A stretch of DNA of 64,000 nucleotides, taken from contig JBDHIK010000300.1 in NCBI GenBank assembly GCA_039587475.1, positions 39,450-103,449 on the forward strand. Reading direction: 5' to 3'. Shown in pieces: positions 6,548 to 42,324 of this stretch. The DNA comes from Gemmatimonadota bacterium (GTDB lineage: Bacteria; Gemmatimonadota; Gemmatimonadetes; Gemmatimonadales; GWC2-71-9). The number at the start of each line of letters is the position of its first letter. Positions within the stretch are counted from its first letter, which is position 1. The notes beneath the pieces are model-generated. The model saw nothing but the letters and a program-made list of their open reading frames with translations, had not been told where the DNA came from and ran no database searches. The translations under genes and the position numbers were made by a program.

Positions 6548-8421
6548 GGTTGCGACTCCAGGGCCGCATCGATGGCGGCCTCGATCTCTGAGATCTTGAA
6601 CGGCTGTCCGGTCACCTTGGTCAAGGGCTCAGCGGGGACCAGGAAGGTGCTGCGCAGCATCGTCACGAGTTGCCCGTTGTTCATTTCCGGGACCAGGATT
6701 CGTTCGAAATTCCCCAGCAGGGTGCCCAGGTTGGCCGGGAACGGGTTGAGGTAGCGCAGATGGACGTGCGAGACCGCCTGCCCCTTGGCGCGGGCACGTT
6801 CTACTCCCTTGTTGATCGGCCCAAAGGTAGAGCCCCAGCCCACGACGGCCAGACGGCCGGTGTCCTCACCCAGCGCCACGGCCTGGGGCGGAACGTCGTC
6901 GGCGATGCCAGCGATCTTGGCGGCGCGGACGTCGGTCATGGTCTGGTGGTTGTCCGGATCGTAGGAGATGTGACCGGTGCCGTCCTGCTTCTCGATGCCG
7001 CCGATCCGATGCATGAGCCCCGGGGTCCCGGGCACCGCCCAGGGGCGAGCCAGCGTCACCGGATCTCGCCGGAATGGCTCAAAGCCCTCCGGGTCGGTGT
7101 GGAACCGGACCGGCCAAGTCTCCAGGCCGTCGAGGTCCGGGAGAAGCCATGGCTCGGCGGCATTGGCCAGGTAGCCGTCGGAGAGCAGGATGACCGGCGT
7201 CATGTACTTGGTGGCCAGCCGGACCGCCTCACGGCCGACCTCGAAGCAGTCCGTCGACGTCGCTGCGGCAAGGACCGCCACTGGCGTGTCTCCGTTCCGA
7301 CCGTACACGGCCTGGAACAGGTCCGACTGCTCGGTCTTGGTCGGCAGGCCGGTCGAAGGACCGGCCCGTTGCATGTTGAGGATGATCAACGGGAGTTCGG
7401 CGCTCACGGCCAGGCCGATGGCTTCGGTCTTGAGCGCGATGCCGGGTCCCGAGCTCGAGGTGACCCCGAGCGCACCGCCGTACGACGCCCCGATGGCAGA
7501 ACACACCGCCGCGATTTCGTCTTCCGCCTGGAACGTGATCACGCCGAGGTCCCGCATGGTGGCCAGAGAATGCAGCACCGGCGACGCCGGCGTAATCGGG
7601 TACGATCCGAACACCAGTCGCGGAATACCGGCGGACCGAAGGCCCGACACCAGGCCCCAGACGAGTGCCTCCGTGCCGCTGATGGTCCGGTACTCACCGG
7701 GAGGGAGGTCCGCGTCCGCGACCCGGTACCCGGTCAGGTTGCCGGACAGCTCCGCCGTTTCCCCGTACGCATGTCCGGCATTGATCGCTGCGATGTTGGC
7801 CTGCGCCAGGGTCTCGCGGCTGGCGAATTTCTTGGCGAGCCAGGACGTCGTGGCAGTGCGATCGCGGTCGTACATCCACAACATCAGTCCCAGGGCCCAC
7901 ATGTTGCGACAGCGGAGAGCCTCCTTCTTGCTCAACCCGAACGACTCAACCGCGTTCATGGTCAGCTGGGTGACGTCGAGCCGGATCACCTGATAGGGCG
8001 CCAGGGTGTTGTCTTCGAGCGGGTTGGCGTCGTAGCCGGCCTTGGCGAGGTTTCGGTCGCCGAAGCTGCCGCTGTCGGCCACGATAATCCCACCCAGACG
8101 CAGGTTCCCCAGATTCACCTTGAGCGCCGCAGGGTTCATGGCGACGAGCACGTCGATTTCGTCTCCGGCGGTCTTGACGTCCACCGAGCCGAAGTGGATC
8201 TGAAAAGCGGAAACTCCGAAGGTGGTACCGACCGGCGCCCGAATTTCTGCGGGGTAGTCGGGAAACGTGGTCAGGTCGAGGCCGGCCAGGGCCGTCTCCA
8301 GGGTGAACTGGGAGCCGGTCAACTGCATGCCGTCCCCGGAATCGCCCGCAAACCGGACGACGACGGCCTCGCGAACCTCGCGGGTCCCGGTACGGTCGTG
8401 CGTGGGTGCCGTGGTGCTCAT
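6544..8421 (-). CDS. korA: 2-oxoglutarate:ferredoxin oxidoreductase alpha subunit
   Basis: 625 aa; fused pyruvate-ferredoxin-oxidoreductase domains typical of two-subunit KorAB. Confidence 0.9.
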   Translation of the reverse strand: MSTTAPTHDRTGTREVREAVVVRFAGDSGDGMQLTGSQFTLETALAGLDLTTFPDYPAEIRAPVGTTFGVSAFQIHFGSVDVKTAGDEIDVLVAMNPAALKVNLGNLRLGGIIVADSGSFGDRNLAKAGYDANPLEDNTLAPYQVIRLDVTQLTMNAVESFGLSKKEALRCRNMWALGLMLWMYDRDRTATTSWLAKKFASRETLAQANIAAINAGHAYGETAELSGNLTGYRVADADLPPGEYRTISGTEALVWGLVSGLRSAGIPRLVFGSYPITPASPVLHSLATMRDLGVITFQAEDEIAAVCSAIGASYGGALGVTSSSGPGIALKTEAIGLAVSAELPLIILNMQRAGPSTGLPTKTEQSDLFQAVYGRNGDTPVAVLAAATSTDCFEVGREAVRLATKYMTPVILLSDGYLANAAEPWLLPDLDGLETWPVRFHTDPEGFEPFRRDPVTLARPWAVPGTPGLMHRIGGIEKQDGTGHISYDPDNHQTMTDVRAAKIAGIADDVPPQAVALGEDTGRLAVVGWGSTFGPINKGVERARAKGQAVSHVHLRYLNPFPANLGTLLGNFERILVPEMNNGQLVTMLRSTFLVPAEPLTKVTGQPFKISEIEAAIDAALESQP

Positions 8422-35591: not shown

Positions 35592-36302
35592 TCAGGGGTT
35601 GGTGGGGCGAATATCCAGCTCGCTCACCGTCGCCCGGGACGGCATGGACAAGAGATCCAACACGACGCGCGCCACGTCGTCCGGTTGGAGGATGCGCTCG
35701 AGATCCGGTTGCATCACGTCCTGATTCCTGATCAACGGGGTATCGACCGACCCCGGGCACACCGCCACGACCCGAATGCCGTCCCCGCGAGCCTCCAGCA
35801 TCAGCGCCCTGCTGAACCCGAGGACGCCGTGCTTTGACGCGCAATAGGCCGTTCCGCCCACGAAACCATTGCGGCCGGCGAGGCTGGCGATATTGATGAT
35901 CGTGCCGTGACTACGCCGCCGCATGCCAGGGAGGACCGCTCTGGTGACGAGGAACGTGCCTCTGAGATTGGTGGACATGGTGGCATCCCAATCGTCGACC
36001 GACAGGTCTTCGAGTGGGCCCATGCGCGCGATACCGGCATTGTTGACGAGGACTTCGATTGGCCCCAGGGTGCTTTGGACGGTATCCACGACAGCGGCCA
36101 CGTCCGCTTCCTGCCCAACGTCGGCTGCGCCTCCGGCCGCATCGATCCCTTGCGCCTCGAGCTCCGTCAACAACAACTCGACCGTGGCCTCATGACGGGC
36201 GCACACCCCTATCCGGTAGCCTTTGCGTCCCAGGAGGAACGCCACGGCCCGGCCGATTCCTTCCGTGGCCCCAGTGACGAATGCAGTGGATGGTCCAGAC
36301 AT
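35592..36302 (-). CDS. SDR family short-chain dehydrogenase/reductase
   Basis: TGATEGIGRA Rossmann motif, NNAG, catalytic S...YCASK triad. Confidence 0.9.
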   Translation of the reverse strand: MSGPSTAFVTGATEGIGRAVAFLLGRKGYRIGVCARHEATVELLLTELEAQGIDAAGGAADVGQEADVAAVVDTVQSTLGPIEVLVNNAGIARMGPLEDLSVDDWDATMSTNLRGTFLVTRAVLPGMRRRSHGTIINIASLAGRNGFVGGTAYCASKHGVLGFSRALMLEARGDGIRVVAVCPGSVDTPLIRNQDVMQPDLERILQPDDVARVVLDLLSMPSRATVSELDIRPTNP

Positions 36303-36312
36303 GGGCTGAAAG

Positions 36313-36651
36313 CTAATAGCGGAGGTCCGGAGGGTGAACGGGACCCCGCTCCCGGGGCACGGTCTGGCGCCGGAGATAGAAGGCGATCCGGTACGCCAGC
36401 TTGCGCACGACGAGCACCTCTCCCGGATCCAGCCAGCCCTGATCCTCGGCGACCATGGCCAGGCGGTGGAGCGCCTGGATGCGGTGCCGGGAGGCGGCGG
36501 GCCGTTCGGCGTGGAGGGCGTTCTGCACCGATCGCAGCGCCCGTGCCAGGCCGTGGGTGGGGCGGCGGGCCAGGCGCGTGGCCAAGCGGTCCAGTTCGCC
36601 CGTCAGGGCTTCCACGTAGGCGTGAAGCGCCTCCTCGCAACCCAGCCACAT
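36313..36651 (-). CDS. hypothetical protein (weak call)
   Basis: 112-aa C-terminal part of ORF 36313..36933 from MWLGCEEALHAYVEALTGELDRL...; sits in an otherwise 500-nt gap; Arg-rich N-terminal part of the ORF looks non-coding. Confidence 0.25.
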   Translation of the reverse strand: MWLGCEEALHAYVEALTGELDRLATRLARRPTHGLARALRSVQNALHAERPAASRHRIQALHRLAMVAEDQGWLDPGEVLVVRKLAYRIAFYLRRQTVPRERGPVHPPDLRY

Positions 36652-36746
36652 GCCGCCAGCATGTCGTGGCGGGCGCCTGTATCCCGTACCACAACGGCGC
36701 CGCCGGGTCCGAAAACATGGCCTCGCAGAGGGAGGCGGCACGTCAT

Positions 36747-36775
36747 TTGACATCTTCCGCGTCTGCCTCCAAGAT
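36747..36775 (+). promoter_or_regulatory. candidate sigma70-type promoter of the EF-G paralog (TTGACA -35, 17-nt spacer, weak CAAGAT -10)
   Basis: Perfect TTGACA at 36747-36752, 35 nt upstream region to ATG 36810; -10 element poor, so low confidence. Confidence 0.25.
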
Positions 36776-36809
36776 CCAGATCTCAACATCTGAAGGAGGT
36801 GGGACCGCG

Positions 36810-38861
36810 ATGAAGGTCTACGATACCACACATATCCGGAACGTTGCCTTCGTCGGACACGGTGGCAGCGGCAAGACGACTCTGGTCGATGCCCTTGCCT
36901 TCGTGTCCGGCTCCAGCCGCAGGCACGGCACAATCACTGACGGCACGACCCTGACGGACTACTCCCAGGATGAAATCGAACGGCAACACTCCATCGGATT
37001 GGGGATGGGGTTCGCCGAGTGGATGGACACCAAGATCAACATGATCGACACGCCCGGTTACCTCGACTTCTTTGGCGAGGCGGTTACCGGATTGCATGCG
37101 GCCGACGCCGCCGTCGTGGTGCTCAGTGGCACCGGCGGTGTGGAAGTCGGCACGGAGAAGGTGTGGGAGATGTGTGACCGGCTGCATCTTCCGCGGATGC
37201 TGTTCGTGTCGCTGATGGACAAGGAGCATGCGGACTTCGAGCGAGTCTTCGCCGACGTGAAGGAGCATCTCTCGCCCAAGGTGTTGCCGGTCGAGATTCC
37301 CGTCGGAGACGGCCATGACTTCCATGGCATCATCAATCTGTTTTCGGGCAAAGCGCACATGTACAAGGCCGGCACACCGACCGGCGAGTACGACGAGGTG
37401 GATGTCCCCGACGAATATGCCGAACGATTTCGTGCCTACAGCGAACAGCTGACCGAGACCGTGGCTTCGACGGATGACACGCTCATCGAACGGTATCTCG
37501 AAGGGGAATCGATTTCCCGGGCCGAAGTGATCACGACCATGAAGCGGGCTATGCTCGCCGGCGAGATCGTGCCACTCTTCGTTGGCAGCGGGGAACTCAC
37601 CTTCGGCATGCGGGCGCTGTTGGCCAAGATGGTGGAACTGTTGCCTTCTCCCGACGAGGTGGAGACCCCCTCGGACGCCCCGCTTGTCGGACGTGTCTTC
37701 AAGACGGTGTCCGAGCCGCATGTCGGCGACGTGAGCCTGTTCCGGGTCTATCAGGGCACGATCAAGAACGGCGATGCGGTGTTTAACGCCGAACACGAGG
37801 TGGTGGAAAAGCTGAACCATCTGTCGGTGCAGCAGGGTCGTGACCGGCACGAGGTGGCCGAATTGGCGCGCGGAGACATCGGGTCCGTCGCCAAGCTGAA
37901 GGACACCCATACCAACGACACCTTCTGTAGCCAGGCGACACCGGTGCATCTCGACCCGATCCCGTTTCCCGAACCCGTCGCAACCTCAGCTGTCCGGGTC
38001 AAGGCCCGGGGCGAGGAGGACAAGCTGGCGGCAGGGCTCCACAAGTTGCACGAGGAGGATCCCACGTTCCACTTCGAGTACAACTCGGAATTGGGGCAGA
38101 CCTTGATCCACGGAATGGGGGAGCGGCACTTCGAGATCCTGCTGAAACGCCTCGAAGGGAAATTCGGGGTCGCGGCCGAACTCCTGCGCCCCAAGATCGC
38201 CTATCGGGAGACCTTGCGAGGACGGGCCGAGGGGCAGGGCAAGCACAAGAAACAGTCGGGAGGGCGGGGCCAGTTCGGTGACTGCTGGATTCGCCTGGCG
38301 CCGCGATCGCGAGGAGAGGGCTACGAGTTCCAGAACAAGATCGTCGGCGGCGTCATCCCCAGTAAGTATGTCCCCGCGGTCGACAAGGGCGTCCGGGAAG
38401 CCGCGGCGCGCGGTGTCGTCGCCGGATATCCGATGGTCGATTTCGCCGCCGAATGTTTCGACGGGTCCCACCATTCCGTCGACTCGAACGAGATGTCGTT
38501 CAAGATGGCGGGCATTCTGGCGTTTCGTAACGTCGCGCCTCAGGCCAGGCCCGCCCTTCTCGAGCCCCTCGACGATGTCGAAGTCTGGACACCGGAAGAC
38601 ACCCTCGGCGACGTGATGGGGGACCTGAGCGGGCGCCGGGGCCAGATCCTCGGCACGGAGCAGGACGGACGGCTGACCAAGATCACCGCCATCGTGCCGC
38701 AATCCGAACTCTATAAGTACTCCACCACGTTGCACTCCATGACCCACGGACGCGGGACGTTCCACCGCAAGTTCCACGGGTACGTGGAAGCGCCACCCGA
38801 GGTCGCCGCCAAGGTGGCCGAGGACACCAAAGCGGAGCGGACTCCCGCCGGCGCCACCTAG
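36810..38861 (+). CDS. elongation factor G paralog (EF-G-like GTPase) with degenerate G3/G4 motifs
   Basis: ATG 36810 preceded by AGGAGG; five-domain EF-G architecture; P-loop GHGGSGKTT; switch II DTPGYLDF (canonical DTPGHVDF); G4 SLMD (canonical NKMD); the 301 upstream codons of ORF 35907..38861 overlap SDR gene antisense and are not coding. Confidence 0.9.
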   Translation: MKVYDTTHIRNVAFVGHGGSGKTTLVDALAFVSGSSRRHGTITDGTTLTDYSQDEIERQHSIGLGMGFAEWMDTKINMIDTPGYLDFFGEAVTGLHAADAAVVVLSGTGGVEVGTEKVWEMCDRLHLPRMLFVSLMDKEHADFERVFADVKEHLSPKVLPVEIPVGDGHDFHGIINLFSGKAHMYKAGTPTGEYDEVDVPDEYAERFRAYSEQLTETVASTDDTLIERYLEGESISRAEVITTMKRAMLAGEIVPLFVGSGELTFGMRALLAKMVELLPSPDEVETPSDAPLVGRVFKTVSEPHVGDVSLFRVYQGTIKNGDAVFNAEHEVVEKLNHLSVQQGRDRHEVAELARGDIGSVAKLKDTHTNDTFCSQATPVHLDPIPFPEPVATSAVRVKARGEEDKLAAGLHKLHEEDPTFHFEYNSELGQTLIHGMGERHFEILLKRLEGKFGVAAELLRPKIAYRETLRGRAEGQGKHKKQSGGRGQFGDCWIRLAPRSRGEGYEFQNKIVGGVIPSKYVPAVDKGVREAAARGVVAGYPMVDFAAECFDGSHHSVDSNEMSFKMAGILAFRNVAPQARPALLEPLDDVEVWTPEDTLGDVMGDLSGRRGQILGTEQDGRLTKITAIVPQSELYKYSTTLHSMTHGRGTFHRKFHGYVEAPPEVAAKVAEDTKAERTPAGAT

Positions 38862-38929
38862 GAGACAATCCACGCCGCGGGAGCCTCATGTGTCTGAAGA
38901 GGTTCCCGCGGCCATCCCGACCCTTCCAT

Positions 38930-39025
38930 GCCTCGATCCGCTTGCCCCCGGTAATTCCGACTAATAGATTCCGATATCAAAACTAGTTGATAATCAATCT
39001 CATTTACGGGATCGACACTACCTCT
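38930..39025 (+). promoter_or_regulatory. AT-rich promoter island upstream of porin operon containing inverted repeat TTGATaATCAA (38987-38997)
   Basis: Local AT-rich stretch (ctaatagattccgatatcaaaactagttgataatcaatctcatttac) in a ~70% GC genome; perfect 5-bp inverted repeat with 1-nt spacer. Confidence 0.4.
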
Positions 39026-40489
39026 ATGCCTGGTGCAGTTCTGAGCCTCATCGGGACCCCCCCGCTCTTGGGTGTCCGCAGTCGCCCACGACGGATAGGA
39101 CGCCGCACCCTGCCGGCCCTGGCGATAGCGCTCGCCGCTCTGGCCGGCCTCGGTGTGCCACGAGCCGCCGCACAGGAATCCGACAGCATCAGGATCGAGA
39201 CCCTGGAACGTCAGGTGGCGGGCCTCCAGGCCCAGCTGGACTCGCTGCGCGGGGCAGCGCCCGACGCCGAGCGGCTGGACGAGCTGAGGCGTCAGATCGA
39301 CGCCATCAGCCGGCAGATCGAATCACTACAACTGGGACAGGACGTCGTGGAGGCGCGCGATGGCCGGTTCGGGCTCGGGCCTGCCGCCTCGAAGGTGTAT
39401 CAGGTGGAGCGTGGAGTCTCGATCGGTGGATATGGCGAGATGCTGTATCGCAACTACTCGAAGACACGACAGGACGGCAGCGCGTCCGGGGAGAAAGACC
39501 AACTCGACTTCCTGCGCGGCGTGTTCTACGTCGGCTACAAGTTCAACGACAGGATCCTCTTCAATTCGGAGATCGAACTGGAGCACGCCGCCACTAGCAA
39601 CAGCGGCTCGGTATCCCTGGAGTTCGCCTATCTGGACTTCTTCTTCACGTCGTGGCTGGGGGCCCGGGGCGGCTTGGTACTGATTCCCATGGGTTTTCTC
39701 AACGAACTTCACGAGCCTCCCATCTACCTTGGCACCGAGCGTCCAGAAACCGAGCGCCTCATCATTCCGACGACATGGCGAGAGAATGGGGTCGGGGTGT
39801 TCGGAGAAACCGGAGGCTTCGCCTTCCGGGGGTTTGTCGTCAATTCGTTCGATGCCGTGGGAGGCGGCACGTCCAACGCCAAGGGCTTCAATGCCGAGGG
39901 CCTGCGCGACGGTCGCCAGAAAGGCTCCAAGGCGGTCATCGAGAACGTGGCCGGGGTGGCTCGGCTGGACTACGTGGGGCAGCGTGGTGCGACGATCGGG
40001 CTGTCGGCATTCTACGGGAATACCGGACAGGGGAATACCGATCCGGCCGGTCAGGTCATCGCCGCACCGACCTTCATCGGCGAAGTACACGCGGAGTACC
40101 GCTCACGGGGGTGGTGGCTTCGCGGCCTGTACACCTTGTCCACCGTTGGAGACGTCCCCCAGCTCAACGCGGCCCGGAACCTCACCGGTGCGGAGTCCAT
40201 CGGTGAGCGTCTCACCGGGTGGTATCTCGAGGCCGGTTACGATGTGTTGCGATCCGTGGCGACGACTCACCAGCTGATTCCCTACCTGCGCTACGAACAG
40301 CTCAATACGCAGGACCAGGTGCCGGCAGGGTTCAGCGCCAATCCCGCGAACGACCAGACCATCACGACGGTGGGCGCCATGTGGAAGCCCATCGCCAACA
40401 TTTCCGTCAAGGCGGACTACCAGATCCGGACCAACGGCGCTCGGACCGGTGTCGATCGGCTCAACCTCAACCTCGGGTACCTGTTTTGA
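39026..40489 (+). CDS. outer-membrane porin with N-terminal coiled coil (phosphate-selective-porin O/P-like)
   Basis: Signal peptide (RRIGRRTLPALAIALAALAGLGVPRAAAQ); coiled coil IETLERQVAGLQAQLDSLRG...; beta-barrel pattern ending ...LNLNLGYLF; start may instead be TTG ~39068. Confidence 0.7.
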   Translation: MPGAVLSLIGTPPLLGVRSRPRRIGRRTLPALAIALAALAGLGVPRAAAQESDSIRIETLERQVAGLQAQLDSLRGAAPDAERLDELRRQIDAISRQIESLQLGQDVVEARDGRFGLGPAASKVYQVERGVSIGGYGEMLYRNYSKTRQDGSASGEKDQLDFLRGVFYVGYKFNDRILFNSEIELEHAATSNSGSVSLEFAYLDFFFTSWLGARGGLVLIPMGFLNELHEPPIYLGTERPETERLIIPTTWRENGVGVFGETGGFAFRGFVVNSFDAVGGGTSNAKGFNAEGLRDGRQKGSKAVIENVAGVARLDYVGQRGATIGLSAFYGNTGQGNTDPAGQVIAAPTFIGEVHAEYRSRGWWLRGLYTLSTVGDVPQLNAARNLTGAESIGERLTGWYLEAGYDVLRSVATTHQLIPYLRYEQLNTQDQVPAGFSANPANDQTITTVGAMWKPIANISVKADYQIRTNGARTGVDRLNLNLGYLF

Positions 40490-40503
40490 GGCTGTGGTAT
40501 GCG

Positions 40504-41043
40504 ATGGTGCTGACCGCCACCGTGACCGGCGCGGCCTGGGGACAGGGGGTGGTCACCCAGGAGGAGGCCTTGGCGCAGGCGGTGCCGGGGGCTATCTGGG
40601 ATCGCCGGACGGCCTACCTGTCGGAGCAGGACCTGGTGGCCATTGCCGGTCTGGCACATCCAACGGCCGCGCACGATCGGCCGGTCGTCAGTTACTACCT
40701 GGCCTGCCAGAACGGTATCGCCAGTCATGTGGCCTATTTCGAGGCCCATCCGGTACGCACGCTCCCGGAAGTCTTGATGGTCGTCGTCGGGCCCGATGGC
40801 CGGGTGGAGCGGGTCGCCGTCCTGAAGTTCTCGGAGCCACCGGAGTATAGGGCCCCGGAAGGCTGGCTTCGACAGTTCGTGGATCACGGTCTGGATGACG
40901 CACTATCCCTGAAGCAGGACATCGATGGCATGACCGGGGCGACGCTCACCGCCAACGCGGTGACGGACGCCGTGCGGAGGCTCCTTGCACTCCACGCTCA
41001 CCTCGATCCCTTCGAGACAGGCGCGGGCGGGGCCGCACCGTGA
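40504..41043 (+). CDS. FMN-binding domain (FMN_bind) extracytoplasmic protein with flavinylation motif
   Basis: Signal-like N-terminus MVLTATVTGAAWGQG; FMN_bind fold pattern; DGMTGATLTANAV contains the [S/T]GA[T/S] ApbE flavinylation motif; alternative TTG start at 40486 overlaps porin stop. Confidence 0.7.
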   Translation: MVLTATVTGAAWGQGVVTQEEALAQAVPGAIWDRRTAYLSEQDLVAIAGLAHPTAAHDRPVVSYYLACQNGIASHVAYFEAHPVRTLPEVLMVVVGPDGRVERVAVLKFSEPPEYRAPEGWLRQFVDHGLDDALSLKQDIDGMTGATLTANAVTDAVRRLLALHAHLDPFETGAGGAAP

Positions 41044-41561
41044 GCCGGTTCGAGCGCTGGAACCTGTGGGTGACCTCGGCACTCGTCGTGATTACGGGGA
41101 TTGGCCTCTTCGGCGTCAAGTACCTCATGACCCCAGTCGAGCCATGGGCGGTCATCAACCACCCGGTCCAACCGTGGTTGCTCAAGACCCACATCCTCGT
41201 CGCGCCATTCATGGTCTTTGCGGTCGGCAGCATCACCCTGCGCCATGTGTGGCAACACTATCGCAGCGGACAGCCGCAGGGCCGCACCAGCGGGATAGCC
41301 ACCGCGCTCGTGGTGGTCCCCATGATCGTGACGGGGTACCTGATCCAGGTCGTCACGTCTGTCGGATGGTTGCAGGCGATGGTGGTCGTCCACCTCGTCA
41401 CCGGGACGGTGTACGCCCTGGCGTTGAGCCTTCACCAGGCGGCGAATCGGTCCAGGGGGCCCTCGGATGTCCGGCCCGAGCCTCCGCGCCCTGCTCGGCG
41501 CCCGCGCCGAGACAGCCCCCGGCGCGGCCGAGCCCCCGATCGACCTCACGCCACGCCCTAG
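41040..41561 (+). CDS. 4-TM membrane protein with conserved intramembrane His (DUF4405-like / putative b-type haem membrane protein)
   Basis: GTGA start/stop overlap with FMN_bind gene; four predicted TM helices carrying His (KTHILVAPF, LRHVWQHY, VVVHLVTG); Arg/Pro-rich C-terminal tail. Confidence 0.55.
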   Translation: MSRFERWNLWVTSALVVITGIGLFGVKYLMTPVEPWAVINHPVQPWLLKTHILVAPFMVFAVGSITLRHVWQHYRSGQPQGRTSGIATALVVVPMIVTGYLIQVVTSVGWLQAMVVVHLVTGTVYALALSLHQAANRSRGPSDVRPEPPRPARRPRRDSPRRGRAPDRPHATP

Positions 41562-41567
41562 AACGTC

Positions 41568-42149
41568 CTAGTCGGCGGGATCCCGGTCCGGGGTCAGCAT
41601 GCTCGTTTCGGGATAGGCCCTGGCACCGGGGAAATCTGCCGCGACGGTCTTGCGCTTCCCCACCCACTCCTCGATGTCGACCCGAAACACGGAAGTGCGC
41701 TTGAGCTCTTCCGCGGTGATGGCATGGTAGTCACGTCCCGGGGCCAGGTCGTCGAAGTACTTGTCCAGCAACAGCTGCAGTCCGTACTCGGCTTCGCCGG
41801 GGACCGTGACCACCTGCCCGCGCCCGAAGGCCATGACGGAGGCGTATTCGGTACTGAACTCGAGCGCGGTGTCCGCCGGAAGGAGCCGGCCCAGCTCCAT
41901 GACCGTAAAGGCGACGCGATCGTTGCGTTCGACGACGTCTCGGGTATGCCCCCGCCGAGCGGTGTGCAGATAGATGGCGTGACGGGCCTCGTCATAGACG
42001 AACAGGTTGGCATTCAGGAACGGCTGACCGTCCTGGACGGTGGCAAGCACTCCGGTTGCCGCCGTGCTCAGCATGGCCTTCATCCAGGCCTCATCCTGAA
42101 CGGCGCGGTCTCGTCTGCGGACTTCCGTGCGGTCGCCGGGTTGGGCCAT
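41568..42149 (-). CDS. pyridoxamine 5'-phosphate oxidase family FMN-binding split-barrel protein
   Basis: 193 aa; PNPOx-like pattern ...ATVQDGQPFLNANLFVYDEARHAIYLHTARRGHTRDVV... Confidence 0.75.
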   Translation of the reverse strand: MAQPGDRTEVRRRDRAVQDEAWMKAMLSTAATGVLATVQDGQPFLNANLFVYDEARHAIYLHTARRGHTRDVVERNDRVAFTVMELGRLLPADTALEFSTEYASVMAFGRGQVVTVPGEAEYGLQLLLDKYFDDLAPGRDYHAITAEELKRTSVFRVDIEEWVGKRKTVAADFPGARAYPETSMLTPDRDPAD

Positions 42150-42180
42150 GGCGCCCCCAGAGCGGTGGGTTGAGGGTGGA

Positions 42181-42210
42181 ACGTGAAACCGCCCGGCGAC
42201 GGCCGGGCGG
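42181..42210 (-). terminator. candidate rho-independent terminator after folA (thyA-folA operon)
   Basis: Perfect 9-bp GC stem CCGCCCGGC-GACG-GCCGGGCGG at ~42189-42210, followed on the minus strand by UUUCACGUU; ~115 nt downstream of folA stop. Confidence 0.35.
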
Positions 42211-42324
42211 GGCTCTCAAAACGCAGCGAGGTTCGTCGCTTCGCTCGTACAATCTGGTGCTGACTCCGATCCCACCGCTGCTTGTGGATCGGGCTCGCTG
42301 TGATCCGAAAGCGCTACCCGAAAA

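Follow-up and report, generated by a model that had tools for sequence, protein, structure and literature searches.

A conserved Gemmatimonadota operon for a porin, an FMN_bind protein and a candidate di-haem cytochrome b, preceded by a Fur-type box

Introduction

What is the use of an operon that encodes an outer-membrane porin, a predicted secreted flavoprotein and a small protein with four transmembrane segments (4-TM)? The question is raised by a 64-kb stretch of DNA from a Gemmatimonadota bacterium (contig JBDHIK010000300.1), which is called the window below; its GC content is about 65%, and all coordinates are in the numbering of the whole window. The three genes, translationally coupled and preceded by a promoter and an operator, occupy positions 38940-41561 of the + strand. 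A first-pass annotation of the window had proposed that they serve either redox chemistry on an imported substrate or an envelope electron conduit.

Clusters in which apbE accompanies a secreted protein to be flavinylated and a membrane electron carrier have been surveyed by Meheust et al. (2021; PMC8238504), who described five classes of membrane protein: NapH-like, MsrQ-like, PepSY-like, DsbD and NQR/RNF-like. We report that the three genes of the window form a conserved operon of Gemmatimonadota, which we regard as practically certain, and that the products very probably constitute an ApbE-dependent electron-transfer module. As to its purpose, the reading that we prefer, and to which we give about an even chance, is a periplasmic ferric reductase that depends on ApbE, is repressed by Fur and serves reductive iron acquisition.

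Results

The operon and its link to apbE

The elements of the locus, with the evidence for each, are the following.

38939-39035, + strand: AT-rich promoter/operator region, the sole stretch of the window with 40% GC or less
38942-38947, + strand: putative -35 hexamer TTGCCC, placed by cross-locus alignment on the box
38965-38970, + strand: putative -10 hexamer TAGATT, 17 nucleotides (nt) past the -35, placed by cross-locus alignment
38986-39004, no strand assigned: Fur-box-like operator GTTGATAATCAATCTCATT, a 7-1-7 inverted repeat that includes the palindrome TTGATAATCAA (motif match and conservation)
39026-40489, + strand: outer-membrane porin gene, with signal peptide, coiled coil and 16-strand barrel (Pfam, structure model, homologues)
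40486-41043, + strand: predicted secreted FMN_bind (flavin mononucleotide-binding) protein gene, 185 amino acids (aa) from TTG 40486, alternative ATG 40504 (Pfam, NCBIfam, conservation)
40924-40950, + strand: ApbE flavinylation motif DGMTGATLT (translation and homologue conservation)
41040-41561, + strand: 4-TM gene, unclassified family, candidate di-haem cytochrome b (profile search, alignment, structure model)

The porin gene can start at ATG 39026 or at TTG 39068 (the JGI call on a near-identical contig), with the same mature protein in either case, and stops at TGA 40487-40489. A further candidate start, TTG 38987, which opens a 500-aa open reading frame (ORF), is not credible because it falls within the operator. 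The FMN_bind start TTG 40486 overlaps the porin stop (TTGA), and its stop, TGA 41041-41043, is overlapped in turn by the GTG 41040 of the 4-TM gene (GTGA); both couplings described in the first-pass annotation were found, and the 4-nt overlap between the FMN_bind and 4-TM genes was also seen in most related loci. The promoter region, which had been called strikingly AT-rich, is indeed the only place in the window where the GC content over 60 nt drops to 40% or less, with a minimum of 32%. An Rfam scan of positions 38500-42300 returned no RNA family, in particular no FMN riboswitch.

Relatives of the 4-TM protein were sought by a scan of one genome per species, which gave 315 stretches. Nearly all of the best 80 of these 315 come from Gemmatimonadota metagenome-assembled genomes (MAGs), the exceptions being one Thermoanaerobaculia MAG, 'Bacterium HR33' and one 'uncultured bacterium' MAG. 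ORFs were called in 88 related loci and in the window (89 sequences), and the four families were located with hidden Markov models (HMMs), with the following result.

apbE, porin, FMN_bind, 4-TM: 62 of 89 sequences
porin, FMN_bind, 4-TM, all on one strand: 20 of 89 sequences
FMN_bind, 4-TM: 4 of 89 sequences
4-TM alone: 2 of 89 sequences
4-TM, porin, FMN_bind: 1 of 89 sequences

One of the loci scored as FMN_bind and 4-TM only (L068) is in fact a complete module, of which masked bases conceal a part. Several of the 20 sequences that lack apbE end at a contig edge; others, including the window and its closest syntenic relative, L002, are truly without an adjacent apbE. When the neighbouring genes were clustered, no further family was common to more than 29 loci, and the neighbours shared across loci reflected lineage synteny (sigma-54 activator, ClpX/ClpP, trigger factor, GTPase), that is, unrelated housekeeping or regulatory genes.

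The link to apbE also takes the form of gene fusion. In seven of the scanned 4-TM cluster representatives an ApbE domain forms the C-terminal part (E from 1e-20 to 1e-64), and in the three fusions inspected a fifth hydrophobic or TM segment connects the 4-TM domain to the ApbE domain. Two of the fusion genes stand in the order porin-FMN_bind-4TM::ApbE, one of them on a contig of 49% GC. This topology implies that the C-terminus of the 4-TM protein must be cytoplasmic, and the distribution of charges, judged by the positive-inside rule, is consistent with it. The association first proposed, of a flavinylated FMN_bind protein and a small His-bearing membrane partner tied to a porin, thus holds, with apbE directly upstream in 62 of the 89 sequences and fused elsewhere.

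The FMN_bind flavoprotein

The second gene encodes a protein that matches Pfam FMN_bind (PF04205) at aa 97-167 with E 9.3e-10 and 39.5 bits, against a cut-off of 22. NCBIfam gave weak RnfG and NqrC matches, and against solved structures the profile hit only RnfG, at E 0.66. The N-terminus MRLWYAMVLTATVTGAAWG resembles, to the eye, a cleavable signal peptide. The flavinylation motif occupies aa 147-155; its core TGA[TS]LT is kept in 82 of 87 module homologues, among which TGATLT is conserved at 90% or more, and the Asp three residues upstream is not conserved. The domain and motif assignments of the first-pass annotation are therefore sound. By analogy with NqrC and RnfG, as described in the literature, Thr153 (codon 40942-40944) is the predicted FMN-bearing residue.

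A different use of flavin may be considered here: the porin could move free flavins, either for uptake or for release as iron-reducing shuttles, and the cytochrome b and FMN_bind proteins would reduce or load them. Low iron reportedly leads to flavin secretion in several bacteria, according to a review, and ApbE needs flavin adenine dinucleotide in the periplasm. Clusters containing DUF4405 proteins, moreover, often contain a flavin transporter (PMC11334425). Such a role nevertheless appears quite improbable, as no gene for flavin biosynthesis or transport is conserved among the clustered neighbours of the module, and the FMN_bind motif is one for covalent attachment of a fixed cofactor.

The 4-TM protein

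The 4-TM protein of the window has no Pfam match at E ≤ 1 and no NCBIfam match. Its 77 homologues retrieved with a word index are likewise devoid of Pfam domains and all come from Gemmatimonadota-type sources; an exhaustive profile search found 1203 cluster representatives (50% identity) at E ≤ 1e-3. An AlphaFold2 (AF2) model made with 26 homologues has a predicted local distance difference test score (pLDDT) of 87 and is a four-helix membrane bundle, with helices at 3-28, 44-76, 79-104 and 108-138, followed by a variable C-terminal tail rich in Arg and Pro.

An alignment of 131 representatives sharing at most 50% identity has only six invariant columns: G20, H51, P56, H69, H118 and H132 (His codons at 41190, 41244, 41391 and 41433 for H51, H69, H118 and H132, respectively). 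H51 and H69 are on TM2, H118 and H132 on TM4, and neither TM1 nor TM3 has a conserved His. The 'His in each helix' of the first-pass annotation must accordingly be amended to His on TM2 and TM4 only, plus H41 in the first periplasmic loop, where H41-P42 is conserved at 90% or more. In the model, TM2 and TM4 each have one of these His (H51 and H118, respectively) at 7-10 residues from the periplasmic end and another (H69 and H132) at 6-7 residues from the cytoplasmic end; P56 may kink TM2. In the cytochrome b of the bc1 complex, helices B and D each supply two His. The layout seen in the model of the 4-TM protein would be that of a membrane bundle with two haems b, each with bis-His ligation, one above the other.

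The comparison with known folds and families gave weak signals of one kind. No Foldseek match of the model to the PDB had a significant E-value; the top probability, 0.89, was for HyaC, and the best natural fold matches were b-type cytochromes. When the 131 members were scanned against Pfam at E ≤ 1, the families hit most were Ni_hydr_CYTB (31 of 131) and DUF4405 (20 of 131), the sub-threshold matches falling on the TM3-TM4 hairpin. The best Ni_hydr_CYTB match in the family scored 27.3 bits, below the gathering score of 30.1; for DUF4405 the best E was 2.7e-4 and the maximum 17.2 bits among members scanned individually, versus a cut-off of 26.7, and E-values of such weak matches to membrane helices are prone to composition bias. 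Since these two families gave the only recurrent weak matches, the protein did not fall into a family foreign to redox chemistry, an outcome that would have spoken against the initial proposal. A profile search against sequences of solved structures gave only noise (CP43 at E about 1). The NapH-like, MsrQ-like (PF01794), PepSY-like, DsbD (PF02683) and NQR/RNF-like classes gave no match to the 4-TM protein of the window, and all five are also missing among the 25 most-hit families shown for its 131 relatives.

Membership of DUF4405, which had been suggested for this protein, was rejected: the Pfam check gave no match for the window protein, the family stays below the cut-off, and it has four TM segments and not six. 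The haem-b cytochromes of the DUF4405/FezC type resemble it in their association with apbE and in their invariant His pairs, but are described as 6-TM proteins with Flavodoxin_4 substrates from Proteobacteria and Firmicutes (PMC11334425), as opposed to four TM segments, an FMN_bind substrate and Gemmatimonadota in the present case. With the cytochrome b561 family (Ni_hydr_CYTB, PF01292: CybB, HyaC, FdnI) the 4-TM protein has in common a four-helix bundle, a pair of His on TM4 with a spacing of 14 residues, a His on TM2 at its periplasmic end and the weak TM3-TM4 sequence matches. It differs in that H69, the fourth of the conserved His, is on TM2 at its cytoplasmic end and not on TM1, that its partner is a flavoprotein and not a hydrogenase or formate dehydrogenase, and that no member scanned reaches the Pfam cut-off. 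In conclusion, the 4-TM family is distinct and remotely related to the prokaryotic b561/DUF4405 group, and the protein is a strong candidate for a di-haem cytochrome b.

One 4-TM representative of 445 aa (P0322) is annotated as a 4-TM domain joined to an outer-membrane barrel of the Phenol_MetA_deg type. It is probably two adjacent genes read through, a hint that the barrel encoded with the cytochrome belongs to another family in some lineages.

The outer-membrane porin

The porin has more than 5800 homologues, all without a Pfam domain. No barrel family was found for it at E ≤ 1 in Pfam or NCBIfam, Porin_O_P (PF07396) included, and the search of its profile against solved structures returned coiled coils only, no solved porin being similar in sequence. 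The AF2 model (pLDDT 82) comprises a signal peptide, cleaved at about AAA/QE, a coiled coil of about 55 residues with helices at 39-61 and 67-92, and 16 strands forming a barrel with an inward-folded constriction loop of the OprP/OprO type. Pfam matches at aa 50-110 are solely of the coiled-coil type, and they bear out, together with the modelled helices and strands, the initial description of a coiled-coil-bearing porin. The 34 closest homologues, which are 56-70% identical to the window porin, align with a mean column identity of 65%. Many charged residues (Arg, Lys, Glu, His) are invariant in this alignment, notably between strands 5 and 6 (NELHEPP...TERPETER...TWRENG) and in GLRGGRQKGSKA; the constriction loop contains such an invariant charged segment.

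In sequence the porin has no detectable similarity to the OprP/OprO phosphate porins or to the coiled-coil porin DcaP. DUF3570 is a family of outer-membrane barrels that offers another comparison. Like the porin, DUF3570 proteins are encoded next to apbE and are about 420 aa long (PMC8238504); unlike it, they bear two conserved [S/T]GA[S/T] sites. This motif does not occur in the window porin and is found at scattered, non-aligned places in 8 of the 34 homologues. The idea that the porin is itself a flavinylated DUF3570-like barrel was rejected, as there is neither a conserved [S/T]GA[S/T] nor a DUF3570 match in Pfam. A parallel by description is psp of Geobacter metallireducens and Desulfuromonas, a hypothetical OprP-like porin with predicted Fur boxes for which a part in iron uptake was proposed (Rodionov et al., 2004; PMC545781); it was not reported with flavinylation genes.

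A porin encoded together with a redox protein also brings to mind a dissimilatory conduit for extracellular electron transfer, a flavin analogue of MtrAB leading to external minerals, the more so as one carrier of the module (L076) is titled Candidatus Carthagonibacter metallireducens. An Mtr-type porin-sheathed conduit is unlikely here because the barrel has only 16 strands, as in diffusion porins, against 26 in MtrB-type sheaths, and is too narrow to sheathe an FMN domain of about 100 residues; moreover, the module has just one flavin, lacks both a wire of several haems or flavins and a redox partner exposed at the surface, and has a Fur-type operator (see below), which points to assimilation. 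Taking all this together, we consider dissimilatory electron transfer highly improbable. Of the two options offered at first, an envelope electron conduit is the poorer fit and redox chemistry on an imported substrate the better one, since a 16-strand porin cannot house the redox protein.

The Fur-type operator

The first-pass annotation had singled out, in the promoter region, the perfect palindrome TTGATaATCAA and had advised a search for the regulator behind it. The palindrome is present at 38987-38997 but would not be significant alone: it is half of a Fur box and part of a longer operator of 17-19 bp, TTGATAATCAATCTCAT, which owes its significance to conservation across loci. Related upstream regions have TTGAGAAT-N-ATTCTCAA in common. 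A box matching at least 12 of 16 positions lies within about 30-300 nt of the first gene in 63 of the 70 loci with enough upstream DNA, and the same criterion is satisfied in about 2% of random 480-nt windows; the Fur-type box of the operon is the single match in the 64 kb. The window sequence TGATAATCAATCTCA fits TGAnAATnATTnTCA with one mismatch. In four loci (L014, L022, L084, L085) the box is TTGAGAATGGTTCTCAA, an entry of the table of Caulobacter crescentus Fur sites, which also contains close variants (PMC2724300), and the variant in L002 resembles deltaproteobacterial Fur boxes (PMC545781).

The promoter itself was placed by cross-locus alignment, a strict sigma-70 promoter scan having found nothing. 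In promoters aligned on the box, about 17 nt separate cTTGAC from a TAGnTT-like -10, and the box follows; its placement just past the -10 would fit repression. The element AATTCCGAC(A/T)AATAGATTC was observed between the -35 and the Fur box in the window (38955-38975) and in L002, L010, L011 and L050, more distant loci being without it. Either a promoter element peculiar to this lineage or a second site for a binding protein may be at hand.

Of the 53 strong sites (at least 13 of 16) in 1.3 Mb of loci, 51 are module promoters. With a weight matrix built from the module sites, its background set for high-GC DNA, three strong sites were off the expected module promoter position: an extra site between apbE and the porin gene in L039, the site of the masked module in L068, and a site in L020 (7798-7816) immediately upstream of an FTR1 iron-permease gene (Pfam FTR1, E 2e-23). 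Apart from the last, every strong box in the 1.3 Mb belongs to a module. Among the closest high-GC metagenomic relatives of this FTR1 with upstream DNA, the box was found in all seven (27-32 bits) at the same promoter position, directly behind a cTTGAC/-10 promoter and with 10-60 nt between it and the first candidate start codon. Distant low-GC FTR1 genes have classical ATTGATAATCATTTTCAAT boxes, whose high matrix scores are inflated by the background of the high-GC set. It was observed that the box-bearing FTR1 genes (L020; L089-L093, L095, L097) encode a long N-terminal periplasmic extension and that their contigs are high-GC and Gemmatimonadota-like, the lineage being judged from GC content and protein similarity only.

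The module of L169 (49% GC) has tandem classical boxes before its porin gene. At 6730-7195 of this locus there is a neighbouring gene, convergent with the fusion gene and overlapping its end, whose start is closely preceded by a box of its own; its product has sequence features of Fur and is typed only as Pfam FUR family. Altogether, the operator can be called a Fur-type box shared with iron-transport genes because it is conserved, has counterparts in a table of Fur sites and precedes FTR1 genes. Control of the module by Fur and iron is therefore likely, both the binding protein and the direction of regulation being predicted from the DNA.

Paralogues of Fur within its family use similar 7-1-7 boxes. 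A PerR-like paralogue could hence control the module as an oxidative-stress device, either a CybB-like superoxide oxidase or an MsrPQ-like repair reductase. This would hardly account for the FTR1 iron permeases preceded by the same box, nor for the Fur features of the regulator adjacent to the L169 module (within its Pfam FUR family typing), and the module encodes no repair enzyme; we give the oxidative-stress explanation very little credence.

Discussion

What the sequences, predicted structures, gene orders and conserved motifs show is the operon with its conservation, its tie to ApbE, the fold classes, the invariant His and a Fur-type operator that iron-permease genes share; that haem is bound, FMN attached, quinol the donor, Fur the repressor and iron the substrate is inferred from them. 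How a ferric reductase of this kind would work can be outlined as follows. When iron becomes scarce, Fur would come off its site past the -10, so that transcription of the operon could begin. The porin, presumably a trimer of the OprP-like type with a periplasmic coiled-coil stalk, would admit a small solute, most likely a small iron species. Electrons of the quinol pool would cross the inner membrane through the 4-TM di-haem cytochrome b, with one haem between H69 and H132 near the cytoplasmic face and the other between H51 and H118 near the periplasmic face, and would pass to the secreted FMN_bind protein, on which ApbE would have attached FMN covalently to Thr153. The apbE gene, which heads the operon in most relatives, would in this genome be located elsewhere. 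The flavoprotein would then reduce periplasmic Fe(III) to Fe(II), to be taken up by separate permeases. Reduction of Fe(III) for assimilation is the most economical terminal chemistry, a choice that we consider about evenly balanced. There are precedents for its parts: OprP-like porins under Fur were predicted in Geobacter and Desulfuromonas (PMC545781), and iron reduction has been tied to flavinylated systems, the PepSY-like flavinylation clusters, the MsrQ-like ones with VIT1 and those linked to P19 having been proposed to reduce iron for assimilation (PMC8238504).

Several observations weigh against this proposal or parts of it. First, tblastn with four ApbE proteins of related loci found no apbE within the 64-kb window; a genome devoid of ApbE had been named at the outset as evidence against the initial proposal, and ApbE is genomically linked to the module in relatives. 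Second, the 4-TM protein is without a Pfam match, as noted above, and its His spacing, 18 residues on TM2 against 14 on TM4, is unusual for a two-haem bundle. Third, the clustered locus neighbourhoods contain no conserved gene for an iron transporter, a siderophore or a TonB component; the module never carries its own iron permease, so that its link with iron is through regulation only. Fourth, the top structural match of the porin is OprP, a channel for anions (phosphate). Finally, Fur also controls genes that do not serve uptake, such as sdh and nuo in Caulobacter (PMC2724300).

The last three points lead to the most serious alternative, in which the same chain from quinol through cytochrome b to flavoprotein acts on a substrate other than iron, or replaces a haem-c or Fe-S carrier when iron is low, Fur control then meaning iron sparing. 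The lack of a conserved iron transporter partner, the presence of respiratory genes in Fur regulons (PMC2724300), the redundancy of flavins and cytochromes described by Meheust et al. (PMC8238504) and the anion selectivity of OprP would all agree with it. However, the module would itself spend two haems, the porin, as the most conserved partner, speaks for a substrate brought in from outside over an internal carrier, and beyond the modules the same box in the same position was found only before FTR1 iron-permease genes and a fur gene. We therefore hold a non-iron role to be unlikely, and retain Fe(III) reduction as the preferred reading. Its widest form would be a self-contained, envelope-spanning iron route independent of TonB and siderophores, in which a conserved porin, a flavinylated reductase and a 4-TM di-haem cytochrome b family, all controlled by Fur and possibly joined by the coiled-coil stalk of the porin, operate in Gemmatimonadota and in at least one lower-GC lineage; we put it forward tentatively, as somewhat less probable than ferric reduction itself.

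The module agrees with the ApbE electron-transfer clusters already described (PMC8238504, PMC11334425) in combining apbE, a predicted secreted FMN_bind protein with [S/T]GA[S/T] and a membrane carrier, and in that haem-type carriers have conserved His pairs. It departs from them in that its carrier, with four TM segments and not six, is outside the five classes and DUF4405, and in having an outer-membrane porin as a fixed member of the cluster. Neither of these two papers mentions a porin or Gemmatimonadota, and a literature search on Gemmatimonadota and ApbE, and on Candidatus Carthagonibacter, found nothing relevant. If the assignments are right, a new family of membrane cytochromes without a Pfam or NCBIfam model joins the carriers that feed ApbE-flavinylated proteins, as a sixth class of flavinylation-associated transmembrane electron carrier, and the porin is the first case of an outer-membrane porin fixed in a flavinylation cluster. 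For Gemmatimonadota, of which few members are in culture, the operator would supply a candidate Fur box and, with it, the first outline of a Fur regulon. The reading makes predictions that lend themselves to direct test, namely that the 4-TM protein carries haem b and Thr153 FMN, that iron represses transcription and that Fe(III) is reduced at the expense of quinol.

Neighbouring genes and other observations

A full-length EF-G-like GTPase gene with all five EF-G domains (36783-38861, + strand), which may encode an EF-G paralogue, lies directly upstream of the module; it ends at 38861 (Pfam) and a gap of 125-165 nt separates it from the porin gene. In the window and in L002, it occupies the slot that apbE holds in most relatives. 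Between this gene and a short-chain dehydrogenase gene (35592-36302, - strand), positions 36300-36780 have 70-75% GC and contain only overlapping low-complexity ORFs rich in Arg, Pro and Gly on both strands, with no clear gene. On the other side, a gene for a PNPOx-like FMN-binding protein (41568-42149, - strand; Pfam Pyridox_ox_2, E 1e-19) is convergent with the module, its stop being 6 nt past that of the 4-TM gene; it is not a conserved neighbour across loci. Upstream of apbE in L006 (4515-4860), we observed dense short direct repeats (GACTGCGGACTTT and GGCGGGTGAA-like units) followed by their reverse complements (TCACCCGCCG..., CCGCAGTCAAAAA), which together form a large imperfect palindrome.

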